64,000 bases of DNA from an uncultured Verrucomicrobiota bacterium (GTDB taxonomy: Bacteria; Verrucomicrobiota; Verrucomicrobiia; Palsa-1439). The stretch is taken from NCBI GenBank assembly GCA_964533295.1, contig CAZHLM010000002.1, positions 30,497 through 94,496 of the forward strand, given 5' to 3'. Made by a program: the position numbers and the translations under genes. The notes beneath the pieces were generated by a model. It saw nothing but the letters and a program-made list of their open reading frames with translations. It did no database searches and was not told the origin of the DNA. Every line of letters begins with the position of its first letter. Position 1 is the first letter of the stretch. This document shows positions 19,801 through 61,296 of this stretch, in pieces.

Positions 19801-20079
19801 CCGTATCTGGACATTGCCGTCACCGAGACGCTCCATTTCCCGGCCACCAATGCGGTGCCCGGGGAGACCTGCTGGTGTTTGGAAAAAAGTTGGTTCTCCG
19901 ACGGTACCGGCCCCAAGAGCGCCGAGGAAATCGTCACGCAACTGCGGATCGCCAACAGTCGGAACGCCAATTTTCTGCTGAATGTCGGGCCGGACAAACA
20001 AGGAAAACTCCACGAGGCCAGTGTGACGGTGCTCAGGGAGATCGGACAGCTCCTCAAGCAAACCACGGAGAACAAATGA
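16891..20079 (+). CDS. Secreted tri-modular protein: N-terminal right-handed beta-helix (GH141/PL-like) + CBM-like beta-sandwich + C-terminal GH29 alpha-L-fucosidase
   Basis: [45 protein letters not shown] (beta-helix N-cap). Galactose-binding-like block [11 protein letters not shown]...WADNVTL. GH29 core [12 protein letters not shown]...[25 protein letters not shown]...FYLWNDG. Confidence 0.7.
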   Translation: [1062 protein letters not shown]

Positions 20080-23000
20080 AGACCATGTTGAAATTGGTGA
20101 TGATCGCGCTGGCCGGGATGGCGGGGACAGCCTCCGCCAATAACCTGACCGGGATGGCCAACAGCAAGTATTACCGGGTGCATCCGCTGTTTCATCCGTT
20201 CCCGGAAGAAGACAAGACGTTGCAATCCATTGACCGGTTCGGGCCGGTGGGGGTTGGCATCAACCTCGTGCAACCGGCCTTCCAGATGCAGGTGAAGAAT
20301 GTCGAGCCGGGGTCACCGGCGGCGGCGACCGGCAAGTTGAAGCCGGGGCAGATCATTGACAGCATCAATGGCCGGGTGTTGAAGGACATGGATCCCCGGC
20401 AAATCCTCGGCGACATCATCGCCCAGGCCGAGGCGACGGATGGCGTGGTGAAATTCGTCGTGCGCGAAAAGGCCGGTGCGCCGGCGGAAGAAGTGATCGT
20501 GAACATCCCCGTGCTCGGCGCGTACAGCGCGACATGGCCGGTCCGGTGCGCCAAGTCGGATGCGATCGTGCGCAATCTCGCGGCGTTTGTGGCGAAGAAC
20601 GGGTCCGGCAACATGGGGCTGGGTGCGTTGTTTCTGTTGTCCACCGGCGAGGAGCAGGATTTGGAAGTGGTGCGCGGGTGGATGCAGAAGATCGCGGCGG
20701 AGAACAAGGACAAGACGGAGATGACGCCCGCGACGTGGTACGTGGGGTATCAGGGGTTGGCGTTTTGCGAATACTATCTGCGCAGCGGCGACCCGGCAAT
20801 TCTGCACACGATCAAGCTCTACGCGGATTACATGCAGAAGACGCAGATCAACGGCGCGTGGGGGCACAAGGGGTTTGGCTCGTTCAGTTATTCGGCGAGC
20901 GGTCACTTGAACGCGGCGGGCGCGCATGTGCTGACGTTCCTGCTGCTGGCCAAAGAATGCGGCGTGGCGGTGGACGAGACGATGTTGCAGTCGGCGTTGA
21001 AGCATTTCTACAAGTTTGCCGGGCACGGCAACGTGGCGTATGGCGACAGCTTGCCGGAGAAGAGTTTCGTGGACAACGGCAAGACCGGTATCCTGGCGTT
21101 CGGGATGCAGGCGGCGGCGACGTTGACCCCGGAGGGCGAGAACTCCGTGTACGCGAAGGCGCGGGACATTTCGGCGAGCAAGAGTTTCTACAGCACGTCG
21201 TGGATGTTGCACGGGCATACCGGAGGCGGGATCGGTGAAATCTGGCGCGGCGCGGCGATGGGTTTGGTGCGCGAAAAGCAACCCAAGAAATACCGGGAGT
21301 TCATGAATGAACGCGCGTGGTTTTATGATTTGTCGCGCCGGTGTGACGGCAGTTTCGGCATCATTGGCGGCGGCCGGTATGATGAGCCGAAAGATTGGGG
21401 CATCGGGATGGGGTTGGTGTACACGCTCCCGCGCCAAACGCTGCGGCTGACCGGCGCGCCACCGAGCAAGTTTTGCAAGACGCATCCGCTGCCGAAACGT
21501 CCGTGGGGGACGGCGGCGGATGAAGTGTTCTTCGCGCTCGAAGCGGCGCCGGTGCGCGGCGGCAAACCGCACGATGCGAACAACGAGACGTTGGTGAATG
21601 ATGGTTCGTGGCCGGTGCTGCGCAAGCTGGCGGTACCGGACGTGACCGACGAGACGTTGTTGAAATACGCGCATCATCCGGAACTCGGCATCCGTGAGTA
21701 CGCGGTGAACCAGATCCGGGCGAAGAATCGCGCGGACCTGACGGTGGAGTTGTTGAAGTCGAGCGACCCGCGGGTGCGTCATGCCGGGATCTTGGGCATT
21801 GCCGAGGTGACCGACGAGATGGCCGGGCTGCTTTTGGGCATGGTCAATGACCCGAACGAATCGTGGTGGGTGGCGCGGGGGGCGCTGGAAAAACTGGAGA
21901 CGGTGCGCGCGGAGTTGCTCGCGCCGCACAAGGACCGGTTGCTGTACTGGCTGACGCACGAGGATTGGTGGATGAGCAGCGCGGCGTTGACGGCGGTGAG
22001 TAGTTTGGTGGCGGACAAGGAACACGCCGAGACATTCCTGCCGGTGATTGGCGAGATGATCACCAAGAACGTCCGGCAGTCGCCGATCTGGCAATTGGAG
22101 AAAATGTTGCGCACCGCCAGTCCGGAGGTGCAGGCGTCGGCGTTGCAGGTGTTGGCGCAGGCGTACGCGCAATTCCCCAAAACGGTCACCACGGCGGCGG
22201 GGGTGAAGGTGGACACCGCCGAGCCGCAGCAGGTGGGCGCGTACGCGTGGCTGATGGCAAAATTGCCCACGGGGTACGACGTGCTCTATGAGTTGTCGAA
22301 GAGCCGGTATCCGGGGCAGACGTTGCCGCATCCGAAATTGTTTTTGGAGGCGAATCCCGAGCGGTTCGGTCCGGAATTGCGGAATGGTTTTCAGCGGATC
22401 ATCCGCGAGCAGTTGATTCCCGAGTTCATTGGCCAGGCCAATCACATCGCGTCGAATCGCAAGTTGCTGTTGGAGGAATGCTCCAGCGCCGTGCCGTTCA
22501 AGTCCAACTTGTACTACGGGCGGCCGCGGGTGGAGGACTTGGCGGATTTTCATCGCCGGTTGGGGGTGCGGGATTATGACTGGCACGAGTTCGGCCCGGC
22601 CTTCCACACCATGAAGTTCGATTACTTCACCTTCGACCCGCCGGAGCAGCTTCAACTGGGAACACGCAATCGGTATCGGAAGGTGACGTTCCCGCCGGGC
22701 ATGGACAACTGGTTCGCCACGGATTTTGATCCGCGCAAGGCCGGTTGGTCGAGCGGGCTGCAGCCGTTTGGGCAGATGAACGGCAAACTCGTTCCCCCGG
22801 CGCAGACGTTTTGGGACAAGGAAGTGCTGCTCGCGCGCGGGACGTTCACGTTTCCGAAATTCAAGGAGTCGTGCCGCTATCGGCTCGGAGTGGGCGTGTG
22901 GCAAACCCATCAAGGCGAGGGGTACCGGGTGTATGTGAACGGCAAGCTGATGATGGAACGGGATCGCGGCGTCCTGCCGCGGGAACGCGGCGAATCTTAC

Positions 23001-61100: not shown

Positions 61101-61296
61101 GGACGAGTATGACCGGCTGCGGGGCAACCCGCGGCTGCGGGCGGTTGAAATGCTGGGCAAGCTGGGCGCGCGGGCGGCGGCGGCGAAGCCGGTCTTGGAA
61201 ACGATCGTGGGTGGCACCATCGAGAAAGAGGAGCCGCTGCGCGCGGCGGCGCGGACGGCGTTGGCGCAGATGACGGGCGGGGCGGGAGCAGAGTGA
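58117..61296 (+). CDS. Giant secreted PDZ-(alpha/alpha)6-HEAT-repeat protein, paralog D (~1060 aa) with internal GH2-N-like beta-sandwich
   Basis: Signal MKRTGFLLLAGVFLSHAIFGA (alternative upstream starts 58057/58099). VTVRVPVIGAFAASWPFNCAKS, WALGYGGLLLAEYYLATGD, WYYNLCRTWRGAL. HEAT blocks DSDWRVRSASCDVLAAL, ENAWVRFRAATALGAVG, ETQWVRIAALGALNQV. Confidence 0.6.
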   Translation: MKRTGFLLLAGVFLSHAIFGAEPVVKSVVWSPHGAERGCRVNLGPTGAQAWMRGCQFEIMTVESGSPSDGILQPGDRVLGVGDTRFSEEGDSRMLLGHAIGAAEAADGALALTIRREGREQRVTVRVPVIGAFAASWPFNCAKSQRILDAACAYLLDAQLPSGKVVTDGGHGTYTAGLLLLASGDARYFDGARRAAYEVADTDLETIDYSNWALGYGGLLLAEYYLATGDTNVLARLQSVVDHLARGQMRCGSWGHNNPSGGYGALNQSGMVCALTMALAQECGLRVDRVAFDRAVSFYSRYAELGAVPYGDHPPGVSLPDDNGKNSLAAVLCWLLPQRRAAAAVFAQSVAISYWLREEGHTGGYFSMMWGAPACALAGPEALRTFLDYQTWYYNLCRTWRGALVMLPYHEALTRFDDSGYIWFGGDFTTGGMALMFALPQRQLRVLGAPRSVFGADLTGPLLDARQAYQARRWNDFDSAIAAAGKVVSSAEEKYWLSQLTAVAARVRASTQRTRQQIEANLAEGDAYRAAEQYRALKRFLGDADEVIVALEKRFADGTVQWHSRTGKKYYQAWEDLRGVGVMSWLPYGEQAKERLAAVPGLQLKLWETLAPTNSAAGGQLEFALVTTNYSALRLQLRSPRDAHSRVFLNGTQVAEATRGQRSGYAKIELDATARRLLRPGTNVLAITSTSTGTGNNALDVGLEGVPVELLPAATPAWTGPVLTELPASVRVVFDRARMTFAATRLEFPENPAIPERMRVRDSADRFKKTLETGFDALAENECMEWLRSPLSYARFLASRSLARRGAAGRQAAVAGLTDSDWRVRSASCDVLAALPKDSLPVDDAVLSRLAELVADENAWVRFRAATALGAVGRPDAKAATALVKAAQDETQWVRIAALGALNQVASEPRVIVAALTAALRVPSTSFGVLGRAVGLIEKLDGNDAELVSALAFAVEHPGEGMGADSVNKAMEQLVRLDPDGQRAVPVLARVAAGGDEYDRLRGNPRLRAVEMLGKLGARAAAAKPVLETIVGGTIEKEEPLRAAARTALAQMTGGAGAE

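Follow-up and report, generated by a model that had tools for sequence, protein, structure and literature searches.

Several described systems bear comparison with Pfam family PF19805 (DUF6288), for which the Pfam description is "family of unknown function" and to which four genes, here named A to D, belong in a 64,000-nucleotide stretch of DNA (hereafter the window) from an uncultured Verrucomicrobiota bacterium (lineage Palsa-1439; GenBank assembly GCA_964533295.1, contig CAZHLM010000002.1, positions 30,497 to 94,496 of the forward strand; Table 1). Lac161_ORF7 from Verrucomicrobia, reported as a novel beta-galactosidase, combines a Piru-Ver-Nterm domain with HEAT_2 and cytochrome c (PMC5342196). 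Like A to D it places an uncharacterised N-terminal domain before HEAT_2, but that domain is not of the DUF6288 family and the analogy is architectural only. In multidomain carbohydrate-active enzymes (CAZymes) that join an esterase to a glycoside hydrolase (GH), the two activities are linked in one chain; DUF6288-HEAT proteins are likewise fused to SASA or GH127 and often abut or overlap SASA genes, although the activity of the DUF6288 barrel partner is putative only. The GH76 alpha-1,6-mannanases (6shm, 4d4a) provide a fold-level comparison for the barrel, but A to D neither match the GH76 family hidden Markov model (HMM) nor carry the adjacent Asp-Asp pair. GH88/GH105 hydrolases and epimerases/isomerases of the N-acylglucosamine 2-epimerase (AGE) type have no sequence relationship to DUF6288 and differ from it in domain architecture and cellular location, and the terpene-cyclase and TED toroids differ from A to D in that the latter are apparently secreted and lie in a glycan-degradation context. 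We propose, with a probability of roughly 0.45, that the DUF6288 barrel acts on glycans, probably as a catalyst, in partnership with SASA-type esterases, which are annotated as O-acetylesterases.

All four proteins match the whole 402-position PF19805 model, from position 1 or 2 to position 402, with E values of 1e-97 to 1e-127, and show no sequence difference that would set them apart from the family. Against a gathering score of 26.3 bits, A scores 415 bits (residues 69-461, E 3.6e-124), B 423 bits (residues 72-472, E 1.3e-126), C 372 bits (E 4.3e-111) and D 325 bits (residues 56-449, E 9.7e-97). The family is therefore already catalogued, and NCBI names relatives "DUF6288 domain-containing protein", which corrects an earlier note on this DNA that could name no matching family from the motifs. 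The same note had called the four coding sequences paralogues, and this was borne out: each is an intact open reading frame (ORF) at the position given, pairwise BLASTP identities are 29-32% (E 1e-32 to 1e-115), and the alignment of A with C spans about 1000 residues (31% identity). A to D are genuine, anciently diverged paralogues. The signal peptides that had been noted are visible as signal-peptide-like N-termini in all four (judged by eye, without a predictor), and the proteins look secreted or periplasmic.

AlphaFold models of A and B were built from deep alignments, and their secondary structure was read. The models reached a mean predicted local distance difference test score (pLDDT) of 91.4 and a predicted template modelling score (pTM) of 0.87 for A, and 89 and 0.90 for B. 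Both contain a PDZ-type domain, a twelve-helix (alpha/alpha)6 barrel and a long HEAT/ARM solenoid, in the order PDZ, barrel, HEAT, so that the (alpha/alpha)6 region read earlier from the letters is recovered as a barrel. The PDZ assignment also stands, since A passes both PDZ_6 (29.6 bits, cut-off 27) and PDZ (27.2 bits, cut-off 23.2) and the family profile matches PDZ entries of the PDB (Table 1); the match in D falls below the Pfam threshold, and in A-type proteins the PDZ domain bears a G-phi-G-phi loop (FGPVGIGI). HEAT_2 is above threshold in all four (E 1.3e-20 in B; residues 850-921 in D), in agreement with PDB AlphaRep matches and with ARM/HEAT matches by Foldseek. The proposal that all four share one order of features fails for D, where a beta-rich segment sits between the barrel and the HEAT repeats; this middle segment has a sub-threshold Pfam match to BetaGal_ABD2 (E 0.0036). 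The C-terminal domains of A are homologous to the C-terminus of C (31% identity). Their suggested "GH2-N-like" nature was not verified: the C-termini of A and C have neither a Pfam match at E<=10 nor a match to any PDB sequence, a profile of these domains gave zero matches against the PDB, and Foldseek of the A model against the PDB returned ARM/HEAT matches only, the other domains dominating over the C-terminal beta domains. Most A-type orthologues carry a Cys-rich insert (CxxxFCRCxEP) in the first C-terminal beta domain, and A lacks it (at about 22770-22800, residues ~900-910). Docking of a C-terminal tail in the PDZ groove was considered and dropped, the single beta-bridge residues of the B model all being pairable within the HEAT region.

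The barrel has no confident match to any characterised CAZy or non-catalytic family in Pfam, NCBIfam, PDB sequence or fold searches; a match of this kind is what the earlier note had named as refuting its reading. Barrel segments searched alone against Pfam at E<=10 returned DUF6288 only, and NCBIfam returned nothing for the DUF6288 region. PDB sequence searches matched the HEAT repeats (single sequence) or the PDZ domain (DUF6288-region profile) and not the barrel, and hhalign of the barrel against the GH63-like and heparinase-like proteins of the window gave no signal. The fold search for A ranked GH76, GH88/105 and AGE above the terpene cyclases. This ranking bears on whether the barrel might be a toroid of the terpenoid-cyclase, prenyltransferase or thioester type, binding lipid, isoprenoid or protein and unrelated to glycans, an idea with which the EYYLxTGD and GxWGH-type motifs, similar to toroid repeat motifs, would agree. 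We regard it as highly improbable: apart from the low rank of cyclases for A, neither the DxDD of the class II terpene cyclases and prenyltransferases nor the CGEQ of an alpha2-macroglobulin-type thioester (already denied in the earlier note) occurs in A to D, no match to Pfam Prenyltrans, SQHop_cyclase or TED was found at E<=10, and the proteins are apparently secreted in a context that consists overwhelmingly of CAZymes, esterases and sulfatases.

Conservation was scored over 145 representatives at <=50% identity, with residues numbered as in B. Fourteen positions are at least 97% conserved, namely E119, C155, K157, W219, E230, Y231, D237, Y330, N342, G343, H380, W389, W411 and R417, and all fourteen residues are kept in A, B, C and D. 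Thirteen are polar or aromatic, the other being G343; E119 lies in the PDZ domain, C155 is 98% conserved, and E230 and D237 are 99-100% conserved. The motifs listed in the earlier note do occur, several of them conserved without being invariant. In VPVLGAYSATWPxxCxKS, G, A, P, C, K and S alone are identical in all four proteins, and DLSRRCDGSF is present in A and nearly so in B (DLVRRCDGSF) but not in C (DLSRRPSGAL) or D (NLCRTWRGAL).

Short and long inter-helix loops alternate in both models. From this parity of helices and loops, W219, N285, Y330, N342, H380, W411 and R417 are predicted to lie at or near the long odd-to-even loops, as is G343, which puts seven of the fourteen positions there; the long-loop face is the active-site face in six-hairpin enzymes. 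C155, K157, E230, Y231 and D237 would instead point towards the short-loop face, at which the linker from the PDZ domain joins the barrel. E230 and D237 could be an acid/base pair; if their role is structural only, the Tyr/His/Arg/Asn set would hint at a lyase- or hydratase-like reaction on an anionic sugar. A candidate Glu-Lys-Cys triad (E230, K157, C155) was also noted on the predicted short-loop face. The idea that C155 and C301 form a structural disulfide was discarded, since conservation of C301 in the family falls below 85%. The conserved residues would also suit a six-hairpin enzyme that leaves glycosidic bonds intact. It would be a sugar epimerase, isomerase or hydratase of AGE or GH88/GH105 type, with mono- or oligosaccharides that have been released and stripped of acetyl groups in the periplasm as its substrates. 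The presence of His, Tyr, Arg, Asn and Trp among the conserved residues, with few carboxylates, is what we take to resemble AGE/GH88 active sites, and a heparinase II/III-like lyase gene lies at 41979 in the window. Such an enzyme is nonetheless improbable, as DUF6288 has no sequence similarity to the AGE or GH88/GH105 families and AGE enzymes are normally cytoplasmic, whereas A to D bear signal-peptide-like N-termini.

The family is large. A search with a DUF6288-region profile against 1.84 billion representative sequences and clustering at 50% identity gave 885 clusters for E<=1e-30 and 1729 for E<=1e-10, with relatives up to 3214 aa long, and 541 relatives were confirmed in a collection of species-representative genomes. 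The best 80 of these 541 come almost all from metagenome-assembled genomes (MAGs) of Verrucomicrobiota and Planctomycetota, together with one MAG of Lentisphaeraceae and a few bins that carry odd labels; lakes, peat and soil are the source of many, and several copies per genome are often found. DUF6288 is essentially confined to Verrucomicrobiota, Planctomycetota and Lentisphaerae. B represents the canonical form of about 830 aa, with more than 2000 relatives scored and the best 120 at 63-69% identity over the full length. The A-type is a separate conserved subfamily of about 1200 aa at 46-75% identity, in which the best named relatives of A are from Luteolibacter (70% identity). Tandem pairs resembling B-C recur in other loci, and by Pfam the HEAT repeats are kept in 23 of 27 giant or unusual representatives.

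B-type proteins of Verrucomicrobiota and Planctomycetota share 58-69% identity over about 810 residues (63-69% in the top protein clusters, 58-63% in most genome loci). Mean column conservation in the B-type is 0.85 for the PDZ domain, 0.84 for the barrel and 0.79 for the HEAT arm. With the HEAT arm conserved almost as well as the barrel, this identity across phyla points to either very strong constraint or a recent lateral spread.

The link to SASA esterases was examined in two censuses, one with an iterated SASA profile (90 DUF6288 ORFs in 80 genome loci) and one with Pfam on the immediate same-strand neighbours. With the profile, a SASA gene was found immediately upstream on the same strand for 20 ORFs, immediately downstream for 5 and fused for 3, while 41 had none in the available sequence; where both flanks were available, SASA was adjacent or fused in 20 of 56 copies (~36%). 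In the Pfam census SASA was the top immediate same-strand neighbour family on both sides (18/70 upstream and 6/72 downstream, or 24 of 142 slots), and its frequency next to DUF6288 was about five-fold above that in the more distant flanks of these loci (odds ratio ~5, p ~6e-7). Fusions point the same way. DUF6288-HEAT-SASA proteins occur in loci L010 and L064, SASA is also carried by 3 of 27 large representatives, and in L054 a 1524-aa protein (3891-8462) joins DUF6288-HEAT to a complete GH127 beta-L-arabinofuranosidase, with a SASA gene ahead of it; GH127 appears again in L004, there as the upstream neighbour. Fusion to and adjacency with SASA and GH127 follow the pattern known for enzymes acting sequentially on acetylated glycans. 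The tight coupling proposed in the earlier note thus holds as a statistical tendency backed by fusions and fails as a universal rule, given the 20 of 56 copies above and an esterase within two genes in 2 of the 5 A-type loci examined. The esterase link is real but partial.

In L075 a B-type protein is fused to a conserved partner of about 1000 aa, giving DUF6288-HEAT-DUF2341-LamG-SASA. The same partner, a DUF2341, Laminin_G_3 and SASA protein (L020:129-3173, ~1000 aa), recurs as a separate gene upstream of B-type genes. About nine such proteins from different MAGs, 58-71% identical to the L020 protein, were found, with relatives of it in L007, L014, L017, L018, L029, L031, L035 and L038, and the DUF2341/LamG architecture accounts for 6-8 of 70 upstream neighbours in the Pfam census. 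The window has no orthologue of it, the sole match being a weak one at SASA level at 36653(-). In L003 a B-type gene without a SASA neighbour lies three genes downstream of an MBOAT and AlgX pair, which is polysaccharide O-acetylation machinery.

In the window itself, A, B and D each lie beside an esterase gene, as had been claimed for all four; C does not, being flanked by B and an opposite-strand DUF6785 gene. The predicted stop/start overlaps with esterase genes are present, as GTGA at 27502-27505 between the SASA gene at 26297 and B, and as TGATG at 61294-61298 between D and the TSP3-repeat and SASA gene, whose true start is 61296 rather than the 61297 given before. Orthologues of the SASA gene at 26297 adjoin B-type genes in L051 and L054. 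A further SASA gene was identified by Pfam at 36653 (-), and the GQSNM motif is found in four of the five SASA genes of the window (23756, 26297, 36653(-) and 61296), the exception being 14936.

With its GH29, GH95, many sulfatases and heparinase-like lyase, the window is a fucose- and sulfate-oriented island. The neighbours of relatives elsewhere include GH43, GH78, GH95, GH29, GH127, carbohydrate esterase family 4 (CE4) and sulfatases, and the relatives are mostly from freshwater, peat and soil. Because these contexts and habitats differ, we reject a fucoidan-specific role, and with it the sulfated-fucan substrate that had been suggested, as a property of the family. Literature searches combining fucoidan, Verrucomicrobia, SASA, PDZ and HEAT found no characterisation of DUF6288, and a paper on fucoidan and Planctomycetota (PMC11685898) makes no mention of DUF6288, PF19805, SASA, PDZ or HEAT.

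We favour a glycan-acting barrel because A to D are full-length DUF6288 proteins with near-invariant residues, and because of the SASA enrichment, the fusions, the CAZyme and sulfatase neighbours and the stop/start overlaps. In the mechanism that we propose, the core would be a rigid three-part unit of PDZ domain, six-hairpin (alpha/alpha)6 barrel and HEAT solenoid. The barrel would bind a sugar residue on its long-loop face, in a pocket whose walls are formed by W219, N285, Y330, N342, H380, W411 and R417; that these residues form one pocket we infer from helix and loop parity, and the glycan ligand, enzyme status and chemistry are putative. SASA-type esterases would strip acetyl groups off the same substrate, in sequence with the barrel, and the four paralogues may cover different linkages or sugars within one degradation island. 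A more specific version of this proposal, which we advance with greater reserve, is that DUF6288-HEAT proteins would be the founding members of a new carbohydrate-active enzyme family, of GHs or lyases, confined to the Planctomycetota-Verrucomicrobiota-Chlamydiota (PVC) bacteria. The six-hairpin catalytic barrel would be permanently braced by the PDZ domain and HEAT arm, and acetylated complex glycans would be its substrates in obligate partnership with SASA O-acetylesterases.

Several observations weigh against a catalytic, glycan-acting barrel. Its likeness to glycosidases is at the level of fold alone, with 7-17% identity and without Pfam, HMM or hhalign signal. No conserved carboxylate pair can be placed on the long-loop face, E230 and D237 lying by parity towards the other end of helix 4. 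About 64% of the copies whose two flanks are both covered lack an adjacent SASA gene, and two of the five A-type loci lie among housekeeping genes. Literature and PDB searches found no function, solved structure or paper for DUF6288/PF19805. PDZ and HEAT are typically protein-binding modules, and the domains added in giant relatives are mostly Ig-like, cadherin-like, PATR, PA14 and laminin-G, an adhesin-like combination that points to surface or extracellular proteins.

The last two points are also those on which a non-catalytic alternative draws, in which the barrel binds sugar while the PDZ domain and HEAT arm, as classical interaction modules, recruit SASA or GH127 enzymes or hold them at the cell surface or in the periplasm. 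Such a protein would be the PVC counterpart of the binding and organising proteins of glycan-utilisation systems, and the joining of the unit to Ig, cadherin, PATR and PA14 repeats in giant relatives, in the style of surface adhesins, would suit it. It would also agree with the fixed inter-domain arrangement indicated by the pTM of B, with a HEAT arm nearly as conserved as the barrel and with the lack of an identified canonical catalytic pair, and adjacency or fusion to enzymes is equally expected of an accessory module. However, a dozen near-invariant polar residues over some 885 clusters are more typical of active sites than of carbohydrate-binding surfaces, 800-1200 aa is unusually large for an accessory module, and some members occur singly, where there is no neighbouring enzyme for them to organise. 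We consider a purely binding or scaffolding role less likely than a catalytic one, and the likeliest of the alternatives.

The remaining genes near A to D were identified as follows. By coordinates, the stop of the gene at 16891-20079 (+) overlaps the start of A at 20076; its 1062-aa product has a right-handed beta-helix (NosD/Pel9A-like), CBM4_9 and a GH29 alpha-L-fucosidase domain. From C to the SASA gene at 36653(-), the sole annotated gene is that at 33195-35168 (-), whose DUF6785 and DUF6784 product likewise has no assigned function. An 809-aa ORF at 34767-37196 (+) overlaps both of these, has no family match and probably represents a shadow ORF. At 47079-48758 (+), just upstream of a run of four sulfatase genes, lies the gene for an M28 peptidase with a PA domain. 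At 976-2223 (+) an HpiC1-like domain protein with a PEP-CTERM sorting signal is encoded, which, with the Luteolibacter relatives of A, suggests a Verrucomicrobiota origin of the window.

Table 1. Paralogues A to D, their domains in A and B, and esterase genes of the window (coordinates in the window).
Feature	Coordinates	Strand	Description
GDSL + SASA esterase gene	14936..16858	+	Pfam; one gene upstream of A
Paralogue A	20076..23582	+	1168 aa, A-type DUF6288; intact ORF; signal peptide, PDZ, (alpha/alpha)6 barrel, HEAT/ARM solenoid, two beta-rich C-terminal domains
A, PDZ domain	20220..20504	+	Residues 49-143; Pfam PDZ_6 and PDZ; beta strands and helix in model
A, (alpha/alpha)6 barrel	20550..21434	+	Residues 159-453, 12 helices
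A, HEAT/ARM solenoid	21513..22565	+	Residues ~480-830; Pfam HEAT_2 and HEAT; Foldseek armadillo/importin matches
A, two beta-rich C-terminal domains	22614..23570	+	Residues 847-1018 and 1036-1165; AlphaFold model
SASA esterase gene	23756..25156	+	SASA E 3.2e-16; signal peptide, GQSNM; 174-bp gap after A
GDSL/SGNH esterase gene	25153..26175	+	Pfam Lipase_GDSL_2, Lipase_GDSL_3
SASA esterase gene	26297..27505	+	SASA E 6.6e-18; GQSNM; stop overlaps B start
Paralogue B	27502..29934	+	810 aa, canonical B-type DUF6288-HEAT; intact ORF
B, PDZ-like domain	27619..27924	+	Residues 40-141; strands and helix in model; DUF6288 profile vs PDB PDZ E 4e-5
B, (alpha/alpha)6 barrel	27967..28917	+	Residues 156-472; holds family-wide conserved residues
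B, HEAT-repeat solenoid	28945..29901	+	Residues 482-800; Pfam; PDB AlphaRep/HEAT matches E 5e-31
Paralogue C	29950..32979	+	1009 aa; intact ORF; DUF6288, HEAT, C-terminal domain homologous to that of A
Paralogue D	58117..61296	+	1059 aa; intact ORF; DUF6288, helical and beta-rich middle, C-terminal HEAT repeats
TSP3-repeat + SASA protein, secreted	61296..64000, runs off window	+	>900 aa; Pfam TSP3_bac and SASA; GQSNM at residue 475

We conclude that DUF6288 is a real, uncharacterised and widespread PVC family. Its PDZ-barrel-HEAT architecture is unusual, and its genetic coupling to SASA esterases is newly documented here. The family is a good candidate for enzyme discovery, and these findings do not yet establish a new class of enzyme. 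Verrucomicrobiota and Planctomycetota play a major part in breaking down recalcitrant glycans from algae, plants and microbes, and much of the machinery involved is still annotated as hypothetical. Should DUF6288 prove catalytic, models of fucoidan, pectin and extracellular polysaccharide turnover would gain a new enzyme family, and the abundance of SASA-type esterases in PVC genomes would be explained. PVC bacteria are not known to use SusC/D-type systems; if DUF6288 is a scaffold, it would show how these bacteria organise glycan processing in the periplasm or at the surface. Either way, B (27502-29934) and the SASA gene at 26297-27505 provide a concrete pairing.

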